NCBI RefSeq assembly: GCF_011045215.1
Contig: NZ_CP049201.1
Direction: 5' to 3' (one strand)
DNA: 64,000 nt
Source of the DNA: Escherichia coli
GTDB lineage: Bacteria; Pseudomonadota; Gammaproteobacteria; Enterobacterales; Enterobacteriaceae
Positions within the stretch are counted from its first letter, which is position 1; each line of letters begins with the position of its first letter. This document shows, piece after piece, positions 40,621 through 64,000 of this stretch. The notes under the pieces were generated by a model. The model worked only from the letters and a program-made list of their open reading frames with translations. It searched no databases and was not told the DNA's origin. The position numbers were made by a program, and so were the translations under genes.

Positions 40621-41172
40621 ATGATGGTGCAGCACCTGAAAAGACGGCCATTAAGCCGCTATCTTAAAGACTTTAAACACAGCCAGACCCATTGCGCGCA
40701 TTGCCGTAAATTACTCGATCGCATTACCTTAGTTCGCGACGGCAAAATAGTGAATAAAATCGAGATTTCCCGCCTGGACACGCTGCTTGATGAAAATGGC
40801 TGGCAAACGGAACAAAAATCATGGGCGGCATTGTGCCGATTTTGCGGTGATTTACATTGCAAAACGCAGAGTGATTTTTTCGATATTATCGGCTTTAAGC
40901 AATTTCTTTTTGAGCAAACTGAAATGAGCCCAGGTACGGTGCGTGAATATGTCGTTCGTCTGCGCCGTTTGGGGAATCATCTACACGAGCAAAATATTTC
41001 CCTCGATCAGCTGCAGGACGGTTTCCTTGATGAAATCCTCGCCCCGTGGCTGCCCACCACCAGCACCAACAATTACCGCATCGCATTACGGAAGTATCAA
41101 CACTATCAGCGCCAAACCTGTACCGGACTTGTGCAGAAATCCTCCAGCCAGCCTGCTTCTGATATATATTAA
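40621..41172 (+). CDS. fliZ: Regulator FliZ
   Basis: Start at ATG 40621 (MMVQHLKRRPLSRYLKDF), 183 aa. Confidence 0.9.
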   Translation: MMVQHLKRRPLSRYLKDFKHSQTHCAHCRKLLDRITLVRDGKIVNKIEISRLDTLLDENGWQTEQKSWAALCRFCGDLHCKTQSDFFDIIGFKQFLFEQTEMSPGTVREYVVRLRRLGNHLHEQNISLDQLQDGFLDEILAPWLPTTSTNNYRIALRKYQHYQRQTCTGLVQKSSSQPASDIY

Positions 41173-41259
41173 ATAAGAATAAGATGTAGCGGAGTTGTTT
41201 TTGTGTTTACAAACAATGGCTCTACACTGCAAACAGACATAACAACATTCGGGGTGAAT

Positions 41260-43151
<1,892 letters not shown>

Positions 43152-49742: not shown

Positions 49743-49829
49743 GCCCGGATGGTGGAATCGGTAGACACAAGGGATTTAAAATCCCTCGGCGTTCGCGCTG
49801 TGCGGGTTCAAGTCCCGCTCCGGGTACCA
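49743..49829 (+). tRNA. leuZ: tRNA-Leu (anticodon TAA), long variable arm
   Basis: GCCCGGATGGTGGAATCGGTAGACACAAGGGATTTAAAATCCC...CCGGGTACCA. Confidence 0.92.
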
Positions 49830-51654: not shown

Positions 51655-53077
51655 GTGAGAGGAGATTATCAATTGAAGATGGCAAAAAATAACAATGATA
51701 AAATGCGGGCAAAGTATAGGCCGTTCATAAATATATGGGAACATCTTCCTTCTGAGTTCAATGAACTCATCAAGACGTTAATGGTGCTGATACGGCAAGG
51801 GGAAAATGTGGGAGCTCAGCAAAGGGAGCTTGATTCCATCGAAAACTTCAAACACCTGTTAAGTGGATGGAAGCGGGCGCAAAGGATCATAGCTGATGAA
51901 CTCATTATCAGGCTTTCTCAAATCAAGGATCTGGAGTTAGAAAAGAATTGTGCCCATTCAAAAAAGGACTATGAAACAAAGAAGAAGTGTATACGCAATA
52001 TTGAAAGGACTAGACTAGAAATTAGGATTTTACGTAGGTGCATTGATTCAATTGTATGGGCGATATTCCGCAATGAACACTCGTCTATAAGACGTTTACC
52101 TATAAATAGAAATACTGACAATCTGACAATATTTAATATACATGATTCAATGGTGGTAGCAGATGAAATCAATGCTGATCCGATGGCTATAGCTGTTATC
52201 ACTGATATTACTACGTTTGTACATACTGGTGATTTACTTGCGTTAATACCTCAGCAAGGCATAACTTTAATTGAAATAAAAAGTGGTAAGAAAAATATAG
52301 AGTTTTCAAAGGCGGCTATGTTCTCAGTGCAAAGTAAATGTCTTCATTTTGATGAGATTTATAGAAAAGACCTTGATAAAAATGACTTGAAACACTATGA
52401 CAGAGCTAAGCGTCAACTTAAAAGAGCTCAAAATGTGATAGATGTCATTGAGACTGGTAAGGGATTTGATAACTTTTTTCAGTCTCAAGTAACAATTCAT
52501 GACAGAGATTTTTGTCCCGATTTTTATACAGATAAGATTATTGAGCTTTGGTATGAGATATATAACGGTAAAACTTGGGCGATTACTGACATTAATGATT
52601 GTTTATTCCTTGGGGCATATATTAATTCTAATATGGGTTTTTGCGGTTTTAATGGATGGATGGAGGTATCTAGAATATCGGGGAGAGTGGTTTAATATTC
52701 TTGATAGCTTTTCAGATGCTTTATCACGTCCATTTTTTAGTTTGAACCTACCTGATAAATTGCTTCTGGATATCATTAATGGCAATCTAATTGTTGTGCT
52801 GTGTTTCGATCATCGTCGTTTCGTAGAAAGAGCAAATAAAAAATACCCCGGGATTTATGAGTTATTGGATTTTCCATCTCCGAAGATTAATCCTATGAGT
52901 ATGCTTTCCATCAATGGGAAGGGGGTAGTTTCTAGTGTTGATGGACAGAGTGTTTTTATTGGAAATGGTTACGAAACTCGGATTATTTTTGATCAGCAAT
53001 ATCCAGATAGTCTGATTAAGTGGTCATACCATATGAGTGATCTCAAAAAAATATTGATAAAAAAAAGCGTAAAATGA
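51655..53077 (+). pseudogene. AT-rich prophage cargo gene of unknown family, apparently frameshifted (~470 aa if merged); PD-(D/E)xK-like motif
   Basis: ORFs 51655..52695 (frame 1) and 52499..53077 (frame 2) overlap; both have protein-like sequence outside the overlap; frame switch needed near the G-run at 52678-52690; motif VITDI...TGDLLAL...LIEIKSGKK. Confidence 0.55.
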
Positions 53078-53272: not shown

Positions 53273-54382
53273 TCACTCTGTTTCTGCTATCCATTCCGGG
53301 ATTTTTGCTTCAAGCTCAAGCTGCGTGGTAAAGCCGCTGTTATCAATGGTGTGCTCGGCTTTTGCAATAATCCAGTCCTGATTATCAATCTCGCTTTTAA
53401 ATCCTGTTACCGTGCCATGCATTTCGGGGTAGAGTTCTGCGCGTCCGCGTGCCAGTGTGATGGAGAATGATGCGGCTCCGCGTTGTAGTTGTTGCCACTT
53501 TGCCGCCGCTGCGCGTCTTGCTGCCTGCTCGTTCTGATAAGTCTTGCGTAACACAAACACATTGCCTTCCGCGCCTTCCATATAATCACCTTCACGGCTG
53601 CTGCTTTTCTCTTTTTTCGGTTTTGGCGGTTTGCGGCGTTTCACGCTGACTTTTTTCTTTTTCCCGTAATTAAGATCAAGCCAGTAAGCGCGTACCCCCG
53701 TATACGCCTCGCGGTCAGCAATGCGGAACTGATGGCGATCGCCGCTGCTGCGTGTGATGGCGAACGAGGGCAACGGCTGGCCCTGTGCGTTCACGCCACC
53801 GCCGGGCATGATGAATAACAGATTACCGCTTTTTACCGTGGTGATTGCGCCCAGCATTTCCGCCATGCGCGTAAGGAAGGACATGTCACTTTCTTCGGTC
53901 TGGTCGGCGTGGTCGATTTCGATATCCATCAGCATTTCGCTGATTTGCGGTTTCAGACCGTACCGATGAGCGATGGCGGATACCACACGCTCAACGGTCA
54001 CATCATGCCAGGACATCTCACGTTTAACGTTAAATTCATCCCGAAAATCTGCGCTTCTGGCTGAAACAGTCAGCCTGTCCGGCGGTCCTTCGTGTGCGAT
54101 TTCATCAACAATGTAAGAGCCTTTTTCTGTCAGCGGTTCGCCTTTCCAGCCAATGAGAACCGTCAGGCGCGCGCCCCGTGGCGGTAGCCGCAACTGACCA
54201 TCCGCATCATCCAGCGTGATGGTGAGCTGGTCTGCCTCAAATCCCCGGTTGTCGGTCAGCGACAGGCTCATCAGGCGCTCTGCCACGCCGGACAGCGTTT
54301 TACCCTCCGCGAGAATATCAAAATCCGGCATTTTTACGGGGTCTGTGCCCTGACTGAGCAATTGCATGGTGGTGTCGGTCAT
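53273..54382 (-). CDS. P2 gpD-like tail protein (late control gene D homolog)
   Basis: Start at ATG 54382 (MTDTTMQLLSQ...) with GGGAGGG RBS; 369 aa; gpD-like. Confidence 0.8.
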   Translation of the reverse strand: MTDTTMQLLSQGTDPVKMPDFDILAEGKTLSGVAERLMSLSLTDNRGFEADQLTITLDDADGQLRLPPRGARLTVLIGWKGEPLTEKGSYIVDEIAHEGPPDRLTVSARSADFRDEFNVKREMSWHDVTVERVVSAIAHRYGLKPQISEMLMDIEIDHADQTEESDMSFLTRMAEMLGAITTVKSGNLLFIMPGGGVNAQGQPLPSFAITRSSGDRHQFRIADREAYTGVRAYWLDLNYGKKKKVSVKRRKPPKPKKEKSSSREGDYMEGAEGNVFVLRKTYQNEQAARRAAAAKWQQLQRGAASFSITLARGRAELYPEMHGTVTGFKSEIDNQDWIIAKAEHTIDNSGFTTQLELEAKIPEWIAETE

Positions 54383-54539: not shown

Positions 54540-55724
54540 ATGAGTGAAACTCGTTTTCATGGTGCCCGTGTTACGGAAAATACCGACCTGGTAACAGCGA
54601 TTAACGATGTTGATTCCAGCGTTATCGGTATCGTGGCAACGGCGGATGATGCGGACGCGAAGCTGTTCCCGCTGAACAAGCCCACACTGCTGACCCGCGT
54701 CAATGACGTGCTGGGAAAATGCGGGACAACGGGGACGCTTTATCGTGCGCTTAAGGCCATCGCAGACCAGGTGAGCACAAAGGTGATCGTCGTTCGCGTG
54801 GCTGAACACAAAGAAGAAGACGGAAAAACGCAGGATCAACTGGTTATCGGTGGTTCTGAATCTGACGGCAGCTATACGGGGATGTATGCGCTGCTTGTTG
54901 CAGAGCAGGATGAAAGCATCGGATACCGTCCGCGTATTCTGGCCGCGCCGGAGCTGGACACGGAGGCGGTAACAAAATCCCTGTGCGTGATTGCGGGTAA
55001 ACTGCGCGCGTTTGTGTATGCCTCATGTCACGGCTGTAACACGATGGCTGAGGCGATTACCTACCGCCAGAAATTCAACGAACGTGAGGTGATGCTCTTA
55101 TGGCCGGACTTCATCGCCTACAACCCGAAAAGTGGCAAAAACGAAACGTTCCCCGCGCCTGCCTATGCGTGCGGCCTTCGTGCGTACATTGACCATGAGC
55201 AGGGATGGCACAAATCACTGTCCAACGTTCCGGTTAAAAATGTGCTGGGGATGTCGAGGCATGTGTTCTGGTCGTTGCAGGCCGAAGACAGCGATGCCAA
55301 CAGCCTCAACAACAAAGAAATCACGACCATTATTCGTCGCAACGGGTTCCGCTTCTGGGGCAACCGCACACCGGAAACGAACGCCTACATCTTTGAGGTG
55401 TATACCCGAACCGCACAGGTGCTGGCTGATTCAATTGCGGAAGCGCAGTTTGAAACCATCGACAGTCCATTAACACCCGCGAACGTGAAGGATGTTATCA
55501 GTGCCATCAGGGCAAAACTGGATTCGCTGGTTACTGCCGGGAAACTGATAGGCGCGGAGTGCTGGTATGACGTGGTGGATAACAGCACCACGGATTTACG
55601 TCAGGGACGTGTGCGTATTCGCTACAAATATACGCCCGTTCCGCCACTGGAAGACATGGAGCTTTACCAGACGTTTACTGATGAATACTTTGAACCCGCA
55701 TTTGCGGTGCTGGGAGGTGCCTGA
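54540..55724 (+). CDS. P2 FI-like contractile tail sheath protein
   Basis: 394 aa; blocks shared with P2 FI (FPLNKP, LRAF, WPDF, EQGWHK.LSNV, IRRNGFRFWGNRT, YTPVPPLE). Confidence 0.9.
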   Translation: MSETRFHGARVTENTDLVTAINDVDSSVIGIVATADDADAKLFPLNKPTLLTRVNDVLGKCGTTGTLYRALKAIADQVSTKVIVVRVAEHKEEDGKTQDQLVIGGSESDGSYTGMYALLVAEQDESIGYRPRILAAPELDTEAVTKSLCVIAGKLRAFVYASCHGCNTMAEAITYRQKFNEREVMLLWPDFIAYNPKSGKNETFPAPAYACGLRAYIDHEQGWHKSLSNVPVKNVLGMSRHVFWSLQAEDSDANSLNNKEITTIIRRNGFRFWGNRTPETNAYIFEVYTRTAQVLADSIAEAQFETIDSPLTPANVKDVISAIRAKLDSLVTAGKLIGAECWYDVVDNSTTDLRQGRVRIRYKYTPVPPLEDMELYQTFTDEYFEPAFAVLGGA

Positions 55725-56236
55725 TGGCTGTGCCAAAACATCTTCGCTTTTTTACGCTGTTTGTGGATGGTGAAAACGAAGTGGGTAAGGTGACGTCCGT
55801 CACTCTGCCTAAGCTGACGCGCAAAACCGACAGCTACCGGGGTGGCGGCATGATGGGTGCGGTAAGTATTGATCTCGGTCTGGACGACTCCGCGCTTGAT
55901 GCGAGCTTTGTCATGGGGGGCGCAGTTCGTGAGCTGTTCCTTAAGTATGGCGGCACGATTGACGGCACGCTGCTGCGTTTTGCGGGTGAATACTACACCG
56001 ATGCAGAAAGCGACCTGTATGAAGTCGAAATGCGCGGACGTGTGACGGAAATTGATATGGGGGAAGCCAAACAGGGCGAAGCCACATCACACACTTACGC
56101 CATTAAAAACACCTACTACAAGCTGAGTGTTAACGATCGCCCGTTGTGGGAGATTGACCTGCTGAACTTCATTTACCGGAAGGACGGCAAGGACATTGTG
56201 CCCGATCGCATCCGTTCCGCGCTTGGGCTTGGCTGA
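55724..56236 (+). CDS. P2 FII-like tail tube protein
   Basis: 170 aa directly after sheath gene. Confidence 0.85.
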   Translation: MAVPKHLRFFTLFVDGENEVGKVTSVTLPKLTRKTDSYRGGGMMGAVSIDLGLDDSALDASFVMGGAVRELFLKYGGTIDGTLLRFAGEYYTDAESDLYEVEMRGRVTEIDMGEAKQGEATSHTYAIKNTYYKLSVNDRPLWEIDLLNFIYRKDGKDIVPDRIRSALGLG

Positions 56237-59620: not shown

Positions 59621-60115
59621 ATGGCCATGATGATGATCTATGGCATGTTTGTTTTTGAGCTGCGCACACTGCCACATCAGCAGTTACAGCAAAACAAAAG
59701 CTGGCGGCATGTGAAAAATGAACGCGTTAACCGTTCAGCAAGCTGGCAGTATATCGGTGCAGGTGATGATCGCATCGTTCTTTCCGGCGTGCTTTATCCT
59801 GAAATTACAGGTGGTGAAGTGTCGCTGTCGCTGCTGACCACGCAGGCATATACAGGGCGGCCCTGGCCTCTGATTGATGGTGTCGGGCAGATTTACGGCA
59901 TGTATGTCCTGACCGGAACGAATACGACCCGCTCCGAGTTTGATCGCTACGGTAAGGCGAAAAAAATAGAATTTTCACTGACCCTTGAACGCTGTGATGA
60001 GGATTTGCGGGAGCGCCTGCAATCCTCATCGTTCAGCGATATGCTGTCCGGCTTCAAAGATAAGGTGACATCATCCCTTAACAGCGCGGCCAGTTCAGTT
60101 AAAGGACTGTTCTGA
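59621..60115 (+). CDS. P2 gpU-like tail protein
   Basis: 164 aa directly after tape measure gene. Confidence 0.8.
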   Translation: MAMMMIYGMFVFELRTLPHQQLQQNKSWRHVKNERVNRSASWQYIGAGDDRIVLSGVLYPEITGGEVSLSLLTTQAYTGRPWPLIDGVGQIYGMYVLTGTNTTRSEFDRYGKAKKIEFSLTLERCDEDLRERLQSSSFSDMLSGFKDKVTSSLNSAASSVKGLF

Positions 60116-60211
60116 TTTTACATTGCCGCCGATACCCTCATATTGGGTAATGGGCGGCTTGTTGTTATATAATATATCGTAGGTCCTGATAAAACTGTTG
60201 AGGTTTCTACT

Positions 60212-61450
60212 TTATAAAGAATTGCTACTTTCTAATTCTGGGTTTCTGGATCTATTTTTACAACCTAAATCCGAGTGGTAATTCGGTATATCGTTTGTCA
60301 AATCTTGTTTGATAGCATTAATTAAGATCATTATGTCGAATTTATGCATATCGTCGCCCCCTTCAGACCTTAGATGTTCGGATGTGGTGAGTTGAGTCGC
60401 TAATTTGCTGTTTGGCCCCCACACAATATTGTTTTCGAATTTTCCTTCATGCATTCTGTTATTATATATACAGTATTGTCTAATGTTTAATCCACTGGCT
60501 AAATGTACAATAGCAGTATCTACAGTTATAACAAAATCAGCATGGCGAACCAATGCAAATGAACATCCGGCATCAGAAAATGGAGATAGAGACACATTAT
60601 CCAATCCATTGTGATTAATCTGTTCTCCCATATTAAAAACTATTGTGTGATATCCCTTAAGGTTATTAAGGTAAGCTAGTACTTTGTTTATCTGTTCATC
60701 AGATAATGTTCTGCTATTCTGAGAACCATAAGGGTTAAATATAACTAATTTTTTGTTTTTCTTCCTGAATTCATTTGCAACAATATTTGCTGGTTCATAT
60801 ATTTTGTTGTCAAAATTAAGCGCTGCAGCATAATTATTATTTTTTATCTTTAGTAAAGATAAAACTTTTTTCATTCTTTCAGATGTGTGAATGGAACGAT
60901 TATCGATTATATTTGTATCAAAAATAGTTACGGCAGGATGATTAAAACAGATAGAGTGTTTAGGTCTAAGTAAATGTAGTGTTTGCAATCTGGTTATCGC
61001 TGTGTTATCAAAATTTGAGAAGTCAACAACAAGATCTACATTCAGTTTTTTTATCTTTGCTTTTAGTTCGTTAAATTTATTTTTCTCGTAAGATATAAAG
61101 GCATCCACGCCAACAATATCAGTAAAGAGGAATGATACTCTTGAAGGTGCTATCACATATACCACCATACCGGATTTTTGAAGTTGTTTAATAAACCCTG
61201 AGGTAACGATGCCGTCACCAATGGCTTGCATGTGCATGAAAATGCACACTGTTTTATAACTATCCGGCTGTAATGATGTTTTCCTTCTGTATCGCATTTT
61301 TAGAAATGCCAGTCTGGCCTTCGTCTTTATCTTTTTTGTTTTAATATTTCGCTCTCTGTTAAGCTGTTTTAATGATGAAATAACATTCATAATGGTACCC
61401 TGAAAATCCAAATCACACATGTCATCCGAAATGAGCAGGATACTATACAA
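60212..61450 (-). CDS. Glycosyltransferase family 9 (ADP-heptose:LPS heptosyltransferase-like) cargo gene, AT-rich
   Basis: 412 aa; GT9-like N-terminal motif CIFMHMQAIGDGIVTSGFIKQL and C-terminal HADFVITVDTAIVHLASGLNIRQYCIY; sits between tail-fibre-assembly G and tail genes (Z/fun position); start may be internal. Confidence 0.7.
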   Translation of the reverse strand: MYSILLISDDMCDLDFQGTIMNVISSLKQLNRERNIKTKKIKTKARLAFLKMRYRRKTSLQPDSYKTVCIFMHMQAIGDGIVTSGFIKQLQKSGMVVYVIAPSRVSFLFTDIVGVDAFISYEKNKFNELKAKIKKLNVDLVVDFSNFDNTAITRLQTLHLLRPKHSICFNHPAVTIFDTNIIDNRSIHTSERMKKVLSLLKIKNNNYAAALNFDNKIYEPANIVANEFRKKNKKLVIFNPYGSQNSRTLSDEQINKVLAYLNNLKGYHTIVFNMGEQINHNGLDNVSLSPFSDAGCSFALVRHADFVITVDTAIVHLASGLNIRQYCIYNNRMHEGKFENNIVWGPNSKLATQLTTSEHLRSEGGDDMHKFDIMILINAIKQDLTNDIPNYHSDLGCKNRSRNPELESSNSL

Positions 61451-61484
61451 AAAACTGGACTACAATGGTTTGAAATGAAAGCCT

Positions 61485-62084
61485 TTATGCTTGTTTACTC
61501 CTTGATTCCACTGGGGAAGCAGGCCACTCAATATCCGGTGCTCTTGATGTATCAACACGGTTCAGCAGCACTCGATACTTCTTCCATGCCACCAGTAACG
61601 ATGTTTCTTCCTCTGTTGCAATATTCAAATCTACGGCATCTTGAAGTGGCGAAATATGCTCACTGGCTACCTGCATGAGGCTGTTTTTTGTTTCTTCCGC
61701 CTCCCGTATCCGGAACACTTTTTCTGCTTCTGCATCTTTCACCCACGTTGTGCCGTTCCACTTCTGAAACTCCCCTTCCGGGGATAACCAGGTGACATTT
61801 TCCGGTAATGGACCGAGTTCAGAAATAAATAACGCGCCCCCTGATGCCACGTCATAAACCGTTTTACCACGATGATCTTCAACGAGATGCCAGGACGTCT
61901 TATCACTGTTGAAAATAGCCACGAAGCCAGCTGGAATATCTGGCGGAGAAATATCAGTACTATTTGCAGGTAGACCTGTATGAGGTGGAATGTATGCATC
62001 ACCTTCACCAATAAATTCATTGGTTCCGACCAGCAGATTATAAATTTTTATGGTTCGTGGTTGTTCACTCATTCTGAATGCCAT
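61485..62084 (-). CDS. Tail fibre assembly protein (P2 gpG/Tfa-like)
   Basis: 199 aa; start overlaps stop of tail fibre gene. Confidence 0.85.
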
Positions 62085-63259
62085 TATGCAAGCCTCACAA
62101 TATAGTTAAATGCGATGTTTTTTACGGTGTTTTCCGCGTTGCCATAAGCGGCAATGGTAATGGTGTGTGTGTGCGAACCAATAGCGAGCGTATGTGTATG
62201 CGCACCTATTGCTACTGTGTGAGTATGAGCTCCTGCGCTTAATACGCGATTACTTGCTGTCTTGCTTGTGTTAGTTGCATGCATTCCACCACCGGTACCG
62301 GGAGTTTCTGCGTATGCTGAAGTATTGTTGTAAGCAAAGTTGTGTGTATGTGCTCCGGTGTTATTTGTGGATTTAGTTCCGTAATCAAACGACGATGTGG
62401 TTTTCGTCCCCAAATCCGTACTGGATGCGCTGGCGCTGTGGGTGTGCGATTTAATGCCGTCCTGTTCCTGAGACAATACGGCTCGACCACTGGCTGGTTT
62501 GCCCTTAATCGTCCAGCCACGCATATCAGGGATCACGCCTGACGGATAAGCGGCTGCAAGTTTCGGGTATGCAGATTTGTCAAAAGTCTGCCCCTGCATC
62601 AGGGCATAACCAGACGGAACGGTATCTGATGGCCACGGGATTGGTGCGCCAGGCGGATAAAACTGCTCTGATGGCGTATAGAGTGAATAAACTGTACCGT
62701 CCGTTAACCCTTCCGGCTTATTAGCAGAATATGCTGGTGACGTATGAATCGTCACGCTGGCATTACTGGTATAATCCCATTGAATATTTACACCAGTCGC
62801 ATAATTTCCGATTGCAACGTAAATATCGTAAGTATCACCAGATGTATTGACCCAGGCAAAATTTGTAAACCCTGTCGATGTGCGCTGCCATAAAGCACCA
62901 GTAATCCCCTTCGGATTACCATTACCTGCACGCAAAACAAGTTCAGATATACCTGCCTGTTGAGGTGAACCGACGTTATATCCAGCCCCACCAATCAACG
63001 TAATTGAAACAACAGAACTCGCCTGCGGCATGGTTACCGTTGCTAATTTGAACCAACCAGCACCACCGCTAAATGACATAGTTGTTGAGTTAAGCGTACC
63101 AATATCTTTCGGTGTCAGTGTTATATCCGCTGAAAGCGCCTTACCATTCACCTTACGGGCAGAAGGTACGGTCTGGCAAGAGCCGCCCGGCAAACGTCCT
63201 GGCATCAGTCTGCGCTTTACTTTAAGCGCAATGTATTGCTCGGTTGCTACATCCCGCAC
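62084..63259 (-). CDS. Tail fibre protein, C-terminal part of gpH-like protein (5'-truncated, fused at a deletion junction)
   Basis: C-terminal repeats [30 protein letters not shown] typical of enterobacterial phage tail fibres; N-terminal ~35 aa of the ORF is antisense read-through of the portal fragment. Confidence 0.7.
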
Positions 63260-64000
63260 CCGCTGCTTTCCCGGCAGGATTTCTCGGCGCTGGCGCTGGA
63301 CTGGTTTGTGTTCGGTAACGCATTCCTTGAGCTTCGGAGCAATATGCTCGGCGAACCACTTAAATTACGGCACGCACTGGCGAAATACATGCGACGCGGA
63401 AGCGATCTTGAATCATGGTGGTATGTGCAGGATGGCAAGGACGCGTTTCAGTTTCGCCCTGGCAAAGTGTGCCACCTGATGAATCCGGACATTAACCAGG
63501 AAATTTACGGCATGCCGGAATATCTTGGAGCATTACTCTCGGCCAGCCTGTCTCATTCGGCGGACATGTTCAGAAAACTGTATTACGACAACGGATCCCA
63601 CGCCGGGTGCATCATCTACATCGGTGCAGCGCAGGTAAACCGCGAAAGCATGGACTCCCTGAAAGAAACGTTACAGGGTGCGCGTGGTGGTGGTGCGTTT
63701 AAAAACGTGCTCATCCACGCGCCCAACGGGGGCAAAGAGGGGGTGCAAATTTTGCCGTTCCAGCAGATCACCGCAAAGGATGAGTTCATGAATGTTAAGG
63801 CGGCATCCCGTGATGATGTGCTGGCTGCGCACCGCGTTCCGCCGCAACTGATGGGGGCGATGCCGGGCGAAAAAAGTGCGTTTGGTGATGTGGAGAAGGC
63901 CGCGCGGGTTTACGCAATTAACGAGCTGATGCCCGTCATGGAGGCTATGAAGCACATCAATGACTGGCTTGGCGAAGAGGTGATCCGCTTTAACCCTTAC
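63248..64000 (+). pseudogene. Portal protein (P2 gpQ-like) fragment, 5'-truncated, runs off window end
   Basis: Frame-2 translation open to window end: ...[15 protein letters not shown]...FMNVKAASRDDVLAAHRVPPQLMGAMPGEKSAFGDVEKAARVYAINELMPVMEAM...; portal-like RVPPQLMG motif; not in ORF track because it has no stop in window. Confidence 0.65.

Follow-up and report, generated by a model that had tools for sequence, protein, structure and literature searches.

Temperate phages can alter the lipopolysaccharide (LPS) used as a phage receptor, as in O-antigen conversion by GtrABC-dependent glucosylation or by O-acetyltransferases. Prophage-mediated conversion of this kind has been documented well for O-antigens but far less for the LPS core, which is the receptor of many coliphages and tailocins as well as the attachment site of the O-antigen. 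Among P2-like elements, the cargo hotspot described by Rousset et al. is the old/tin locus, with no mention of glycosyltransferases (PMC9122126). P2-like tailocin (xenorhabdicin) loci have glycosyltransferase genes in their hypervariable fibre region, and LPS editing by these has been proposed to afford self-protection to the producer (PMC13280938). Here we describe a gene of a P2-like prophage of Escherichia coli, in a stretch of 64,000 nucleotides of contig NZ_CP049201.1 (assembly GCF_011045215.1), hereafter the window. The gene codes for a protein of glycosyltransferase family 9 (GT9) and follows the tail-fibre assembly gene G. The best-supported interpretation, from sequence comparisons and structural modelling, is that it represents prophage cargo of a known kind, i.e. 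LPS-modifying, predicted here to bring about lysogenic conversion of the core.

The assignment of the gene product to GT9-type glycosyltransferases is supported by its predicted fold and its motifs. The AlphaFold (AF2) model, built like the family alignment on 31 sequences, has a predicted local distance difference test score (pLDDT) of 89.3 and a predicted template modelling score (pTM) of 0.85. In this model, the protein adopts a GT-B fold with two Rossmann-like domains, nearest to those of solved GT9 enzymes. The best matches among solved structures are all GT9 proteins, namely that of Veillonella (3tov, 5e-14), WaaC (6dfe/2h1h/2gt1, 3e-12) and WaaF (1psw, 1e-11), with template modelling (TM) scores of 0.6-0.65. 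Similarly, the top 50 neighbours in AFDB50 are GT9/LPS heptosyltransferase-family proteins from Enterobacterales and Orbales, with TM scores up to 0.88. Only remote GT9 folds were retrieved from BFVD. The C-terminal tail of 25 residues is disordered, with a pLDDT below 50. A search of the family profile against the PDB returned WaaC at an E value of 0.044, the PHROG match is to a profile without assigned function (36326), and no family of the PADLOC-DB defence models matched the protein at E<=1.

Conservation of the active site points in the same direction. The correspondences with WaaC residues are listed in Table 1. In the family alignment, G58, D59, H168, R227, D291, T292 and H296 are invariant and R172 is near-invariant, and G58-D59 aligns with the GD motif of WaaC, WaaF, WaaQ and WaaU. 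The WaaC counterparts of these residues are the catalytic base (Asp13) and ligands of the phosphate and heptose moieties (10.1101/2021.06.16.448588). The WaaC residues that bind Kdo2-lipid A (Kdo, 3-deoxy-D-manno-octulosonic acid), R60, R63, K98 and R120, are not conserved in the GT9 protein, which makes a role in inner-core synthesis unlikely. A preliminary description, made from the DNA sequence alone, had already proposed GT9 membership, and the closeness of the fold to solved GT9 structures, which came out on top of the structure-based search, the conserved catalytic and donor-site residues and the RefSeq name of the E. coli copies ('glycosyltransferase family 9 protein') all agree with it. 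The three motifs that it quoted are present in the translation.

The nearest characterised relative in sequence comparisons is WaaU (heptosyltransferase IV). The hhalign comparison with K-12 WaaU gave 99.4% (E 1.4e-21), with 305 aligned columns that take in the basic N-terminal helix, and the values for the other K-12 paralogues were 92% for WaaQ, 87% for WaaC and 19% for WaaF. With BLASTP, the identity to WaaU is 23% over 334 residues (E 7e-17). The preliminary description had taken WaaC, WaaF and WaaQ as the closest comparison; this has to be revised, as WaaU is far ahead by hhalign and the Kdo2-lipid A residues of WaaC are not kept. WaaU is the outer-core heptosyltransferase IV, which attaches HepIV to GlcIII, the site of O-antigen attachment (PMC13293308). 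As a second close relative we considered a supposed homologue of WaaU, the outer-core N-acetylglucosamine (GlcNAc) transferase WaaK of R2 and Salmonella. It was rejected, since R2 WaaK reached only 0.3% in hhalign against the family profile and an E value of 0.7 in BLASTP against WaaU; hence, homology was not borne out. As WaaK is unrelated, the main reason for suspecting a UDP-GlcNAc donor is gone, which leaves heptose as the likeliest donor.

We analysed the relatives of the gene and their genomic neighbourhoods. The immediate family comprises 30 clusters at 90% identity, and the WaaU-like branch 108 clusters (50% identity) at E<=1e-30 among 1.84 billion representatives. The chromosomal relatives found in waa core and O-antigen clusters are 47-54% identical to the GT9 protein. 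A Serratia homologue (54% identity) is part of a waa cluster with the order WaaL-WaaQ-WaaG-WaaP-WaaB-WaaO-WaaJ-[homologue]-WaaA-CoaD, and relatives of Gilliamella and Vibrio are embedded among LPS core transferases. Others, with 46-47% identity, are found at O-antigen loci in the asmA-galF or galF-wzx intervals, including one of Citrobacter (L014). Directly after a fibre-assembly (Caudo_TAP) or fibre gene, relatives are encoded in at least three prophage backbones unrelated to that of the window, among them E217-like and Mu-like prophages of Providencia. Another copy comes after a gene coding for a Gp10_C domain; it is part of a phage packaging module, around which we identified no tail genes. 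One Providencia spacer harbours a clean terminator followed by a promoter (TTGCGC-18-TATAAT); having both signals of its own, that copy is a classic moron. Members of the family have a GC content of 27-33% in the majority of hosts examined; two loci (L007 and the Citrobacter locus) are at ~41%.

Several side observations were made in these neighbourhoods. Beside a Providencia-type pair of fibre-assembly (tfa) and GT9 genes, a gene for a family 2 glycosyltransferase (GT2) converges on the GT9 gene (L003 11144-12118), and a 505-residue protein of the sulfatase family (PF00884) is encoded near such a pair at the end of a Providencia-type prophage (L052 1371-2888). Both are further candidates for modification of the envelope. 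The 50,697 deposited phage genomes yielded no nucleotide match to the GT9 gene. The only protein matches there are in the Campylobacter phages A11a and A18a (174 kb), with 22.8% identity over 81% of the protein (MG065691.1 142249-143205 and MG065686.1 30918-31874, both in unannotated records).

Taking these data together with the structural model, we propose with modest confidence that the protein is a GT9 enzyme of the WaaU branch, acquired with a cassette, which would add a sugar to the outer core of the LPS, with heptose as the probable one, and thereby generate an altered core glycoform. It would be a cytoplasmic GT-B enzyme, probably anchored at the inner membrane by its basic N-terminal helix of ~33 residues. 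The sugar, most probably L-glycero-D-manno-heptose from ADP-heptose, would be added onto an outer-core hexose while the core is assembled on lipid A, so that the host would carry the altered glycoform. Recombination anchored in the conserved 3' end of the fibre-assembly gene would have brought the gene in as a low-GC cassette of 1.37 kb, the probable source being Providencia- or Serratia-like, and would account for the same position in unrelated prophages. We infer the donor sugar, the acceptor, expression and an influence of the changed core on phage adsorption, tailocin sensitivity or O-antigen ligation. Receptor masking, self-resistance to tailocins and altered O-antigen ligation would be plausible consequences.

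Several observations weigh against this proposal. The match to Glyco_transf_9 (PF01075), the profile search suggested in the preliminary description, does exist but is marginal (i-Evalue 1.9e-4, 21.3 bits) and restricted to the C-terminal half, and the NCBIfam scores are far below cut-offs (RfaQ, 22 bits vs 467; HepI, 19 bits vs 185). WaaC residues E222 and M242 have no conserved counterpart, in loops that are poorly aligned. As the identity to WaaU is just 23%, donor and acceptor are not confidently transferable from it. Some relatives belong to O-antigen rather than core loci. No sigma-70-like promoter was detected in the 2.6 kb upstream on the strand of the GT9 gene, in a type of consensus scan that misses many real promoters, and the window has lost the region upstream of V that holds the late promoter. 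Finally, we found no study of this GT9 protein in the literature, and the papers on P2 hotspots do not mention glycosyltransferases.

An enzyme of the same class might use another acceptor, i.e. the O-antigen, the enterobacterial common antigen or another undecaprenyl-linked surface glycan. The 46-47% identical relatives in the asmA-galF and galF-wzx intervals and the pairing of the GT9 gene with a GT2 gene in a Providencia prophage are in favour of such an acceptor. However, the enzymes WaaC, WaaF, WaaQ and WaaU act on lipid A-core, the closest characterised paralogue, WaaU, is a core enzyme, and the Serratia (54%), Gilliamella and Vibrio relatives are found inside waa core clusters. We consider such an acceptor unlikely.

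The gene might also be a silent passenger, intact but not expressed in a defective prophage, for want of a promoter and probably through silencing of its AT-rich DNA by H-NS, and hence without current phenotype. This would fit with the absence of a promoter-like site upstream on its strand, the deletion of the late-operon promoter region, the frameshift in the other cargo gene (see below) and the erosion of other copies by insertion sequence (IS) elements. Nevertheless, the reading frame and all catalytic residues are intact in the window and in 47 of the 48 E. coli genomes that carry the gene, the gene outlasts structural genes in three independently decayed prophages, as expected of retained cargo, and real promoters often escape consensus scans. 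A silent gene is an unlikely explanation, on a par with that of a different acceptor.

A protein glycosyltransferase of the TibC/AAH type, with the neighbouring tail fibre or some other protein as heptose acceptor, is very improbable: the GT9 gene is adjacent to and co-oriented with fibre or fibre-chaperone genes in four prophage backbones, and in E. coli it is not separated from G by a terminator and so may specify a late protein made with the fibre, but TibC (4rap) matched at E 5e-6 with a TM score of 0.47, vs 1e-11 to 1e-14 and 0.6-0.65 for WaaC/WaaF-type enzymes, the ~50%-identical relatives in waa and O-antigen clusters have no fibre gene nearby, and a terminator and a promoter separate GT9 from the fibre operon in Providencia. 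BAHT protein heptosyltransferases (TibC/AAH) were also rejected as an identity for the protein, with a fold far nearer to WaaC/WaaF and neighbours that are tail genes, not an autotransporter gene.

Returning to the proposed core transferase, we delimited its gene. The preliminary description reported an AT-rich open reading frame (ORF) of 412 codons, which is indeed present on the minus strand (60212..61450) if counted from a TTG start, with a GC content of 0.33 for the coding sequence. The ATG at 61390 is the start in 99%-identical RefSeq copies, giving a protein of 392 residues, and in the alignment a start at this position is common to all 30 homologue clusters. Because both begin there, we took 60212-61390 as the gene, and this is likely its true extent. 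Start calls disagree between sources: TTG for 412 residues, M21 in RefSeq for 392 residues and M72 in the PHROG 36326 profile, which would drop the first beta-strand of the protein. In strain NCTC11121, the copy (L049 16097-17116) is annotated with 339 residues and adjoins an IS2 insertion. Across 60200-61400, the GC content is 0.29-0.36, vs 0.50-0.59 in the tail genes (0.547 for FI-T). An ORF of 1.2 kb in such AT-rich DNA, together with 30 homologue clusters, is not a chance ORF.

The limits of the cassette were deduced from the loss of homology. Homology to a sibling prophage devoid of the GT9 gene (E. coli G12) stops at 60151 and resumes inside G, and homology to ubiquitous tfaQ-like genes resumes at ~61519. 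This places the cassette at ~60152-61519, where it took the place of the final ~11 codons of G. The 3' end of G shares 81% DNA identity with a Providencia prophage, which makes it a plausible recombination anchor. The rest of G is an ordinary tfaQ-like allele, ~90% identical in >4000 genomes; thus, any tie to a particular receptor-binding protein is weak. The idea that the GT9 gene is inherited together with a special fibre or chaperone allele was rejected, as cassette-specific sequence is limited to the last ~35 nt of tfa and the spacer. Rfam RF02111 (IS009) is matched over its full length (187.7 bits) within tfa, at 61543-61741 on the minus strand; the match stops ~25 nt away from the edge of the cassette and may be mere conserved coding sequence. 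The GT9 gene is present in 48 of 5426 complete E. coli genomes (about 1%), always on the chromosome, at three integration sites: between ihfA and btuC, in the flk region and at the tRNA-Leu gene of the window.

We then considered the surroundings of the cassette (Table 1). The GT9 gene begins 94 nt downstream of G and is co-oriented with it. On its other side is U, a plus-strand gene that converges on it and whose 3' end is next to it. The FI-FII-E-T-U genes are on the plus strand, whereas the minus strand carries H, G, D and ogr; in the P2 record (AF063097), these genes are co-oriented, and fun(Z) is antisense between the V-operon terminator and the FI promoter. The FI-U block is therefore inverted relative to P2, with the consequence that the far flank of the GT9 gene is U rather than FI. 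The inversion makes the F operon converge on the H-G operon and separates D from U. As the same order is found in the intact-looking prophages of E. coli G12 and M19, it is a trait of the lineage and not damage to the window copy. The sheath and tube genes (54540-56236) are 4-5 kb away, at the far end of the inverted block. The preliminary description had the gene between G and the sheath/tube genes, in the Z/fun position. It does adjoin G and occupies the slot 3' of G, but the second half of that placement does not stand, since the other flank is U and not FI, the sheath and tube genes are remote, and the gene is on the strand of G, in contrast with the antisense fun(Z).

That this slot is a variable cargo site, as also claimed there, is corroborated by the 97%-identical G12 sibling, which carries an acetyltransferase-like gene instead of GT9. 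The 181-residue product of that gene (L012 27314-27859) resembles hexapeptide-repeat sugar O-acetyltransferases (EpsC/WcaB/CysE-like), with scores below all curated cut-offs; the gene itself has the opposite orientation to GT9. It may represent another surface-glycan-modifying cargo. A second variable cargo slot is located between ogr and D (51679-53076). In the window, it harbours a gene for a protein of 465 residues, frameshifted near 52655-52689 and intact in strain G12, for which no Pfam, NCBIfam or PADLOC match was obtained; siblings have a gene for a PIN-domain protein there, or genes for a ComF-family protein and a hypothetical protein. PADLOC gave no match for two other cargo genes, nor for the acetyltransferase.

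As for expression, neither a sigma-70 consensus promoter nor a terminator was found in the 94-nt spacer. In intact prophages, transcription of the H-G late operon would continue into the GT9 gene. On its other side, the hairpin at 60125..60168 has a sequence suggestive of intrinsic termination of the converging FI-U transcript, and it is not followed by a U-tract on the minus strand.

The prophage of the window is incomplete. Read against the intact map of the G12 sibling, a deletion has removed the genes I, J, W, V, S and R, the lysis genes, and X, L, M, N, O and P, i.e. baseplate, lysis, head and terminase functions. This 11.4-kb deletion makes the prophage defective, without virions. The left end of the prophage is directly downstream of the tRNA-Leu gene, which is therefore the likely integration site. 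The GT9 gene is intact both in this decayed prophage and in the intact-looking prophage of strain M19, and the other carrier prophages have decayed in different ways.

Table 1. Features of the prophage region in the window and counterparts of WaaC residues in the GT9 protein
Feature	Position	Strand	Basis or remark
tRNA-Leu(UAA)	49743..49829	+	Prophage left end (hok, ogr) begins just downstream
Tail gene D	53273..54370	-	48% identical to P2 gpD over residues 15-384
Sheath FI, tube FII, E/E', tape-measure T; with U, inverted relative to P2	54540..59614	+	
Tail gene U	59621..60115	+	phrog_76; 46% identical to P2 gpU
Interrupted GC-rich hairpin (GCCGCC..TACCC/GGGTA..GGCGGC), 60125-60158, then TTGTTGTT	60125..60168	+	Sequence and fold
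Acquired AT-rich cassette, ~1.37 kb	60152..61519		Holds the GT9 gene with the short spacer on either side and the final ~11 codons of G; GC trough
GT9 (WaaU-like) glycosyltransferase coding sequence, 392 residues	60212..61390	-	Start, fold, WaaU homology, catalytic motifs
G-GT9 spacer, 94 nt	61391..61484	-	Weak AGGG ribosome-binding site
Tail-fibre assembly gene (P2 G / Tfa), tfaQ-like	61485..62084	-	phrog_105; directly upstream of GT9 gene
C-terminal part of tail-fibre gene H, truncated at junction	62084..63169	-	
Deletion junction, ~11.4 kb lost, H' fused to an internal part of portal gene Q (Q')	63165..63169		Window 63165-64000 = G12 sibling (L012) 40973-41808
Counterpart of WaaC G12/D13	G58/D59		Multiple alignment
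Counterpart of WaaC H139/R143	H168/R172		Multiple alignment
Counterpart of WaaC K192 (basic residue kept, as Arg)	R227		Multiple alignment
Counterpart of WaaC D261/T262	D291/T292		Multiple alignment
Counterpart of WaaC H266	H296		Multiple alignment

We also envisaged a broader, improbable scenario of a portable 'receptor-editing' cassette that moves on conserved tfa 3' ends between LPS loci and unrelated prophages of the contractile-tail type (P2-like, Mu-like, E217-like). By capping the outer core, its enzyme would let the lysogen and lysis debris escape core-specific fibres, and the host would keep the gene after decay of the prophage. If true, a single cytoplasmic enzyme would achieve for the core what seroconversion does for the O-antigen.

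Family-level annotation of the gene was already available in RefSeq. What is new is its affinity with WaaU, the boundaries of the cassette, the recurrent position after tfa and the defective state of the host prophage. The outcome is thus a well-supported refinement of the annotation along with a testable hypothesis, not a demonstrated function. If a WaaU-like side branch is added, the core type could change without change in the waa locus, in silico core typing could be confounded by a single mobile gene, and sensitivity to phage therapy or tailocins and O-antigen ligation could shift. The recurrent position after fibre-assembly genes suggests a simple recombination route for surface-glycan genes into phages.

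Compared with the chromosomal core enzymes, the GT9 protein shares with WaaC, WaaF and WaaQ the GT9 GT-B fold, the catalytic Asp and the heptose/phosphate-binding residues, but it is much more distant from them by hhalign and is devoid of the Kdo2-lipid A-binding residues. With K-12 WaaU (formerly RfaK, b3623), it has in common the basic N-terminal helix, the LGD catalytic motif, an Arg at or beside the column of WaaC K192, the V(D)T(A)xVH donor motif and an (I/L)(V/I)W(G/S)PN motif. It is not an orthologue of WaaU in view of the 23% identity, its gene belongs to a prophage cassette instead of a waa operon, and the disordered C-terminal tail of 25 residues sets it apart from WaaU. The 54%-identical Serratia relative adjoins waaA and comes behind the genes for outer-core hexosyltransferases, whereas K-12 waaU is at the opposite end of the cluster, beside waaL.

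Compared with phage-borne systems, the gene resembles the P2 cargo genes fun(Z), old and tin in its foreign composition, its location directly 3' of G, i.e. in the fun(Z) slot, and the variation of content among siblings. Unlike P2 Fun(Z), to which it has no sequence similarity, it is on the strand of G and not antisense after a V-operon terminator, its far flank is U rather than the FI promoter, and the 94-nt gap contains no promoter or terminator of its own that we could find. As in the xenorhabdicin loci, a glycosyltransferase gene sits beside the fibre genes of a P2-type contractile-tail element; those loci, however, belong to another genus, the enzymes named there are a glycosyltransferase and a mannosyltransferase, not necessarily of GT9, and self-protection is a proposal. 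The logic would be analogous to that of O-antigen conversion, with the LPS receptor altered by a temperate phage. The Gtr system relies on three genes and acts in the periplasm with a bactoprenol-linked sugar, whereas the GT9 gene specifies a single, predicted cytoplasmic GT-B enzyme that would use a nucleotide sugar and most likely acts on the core.

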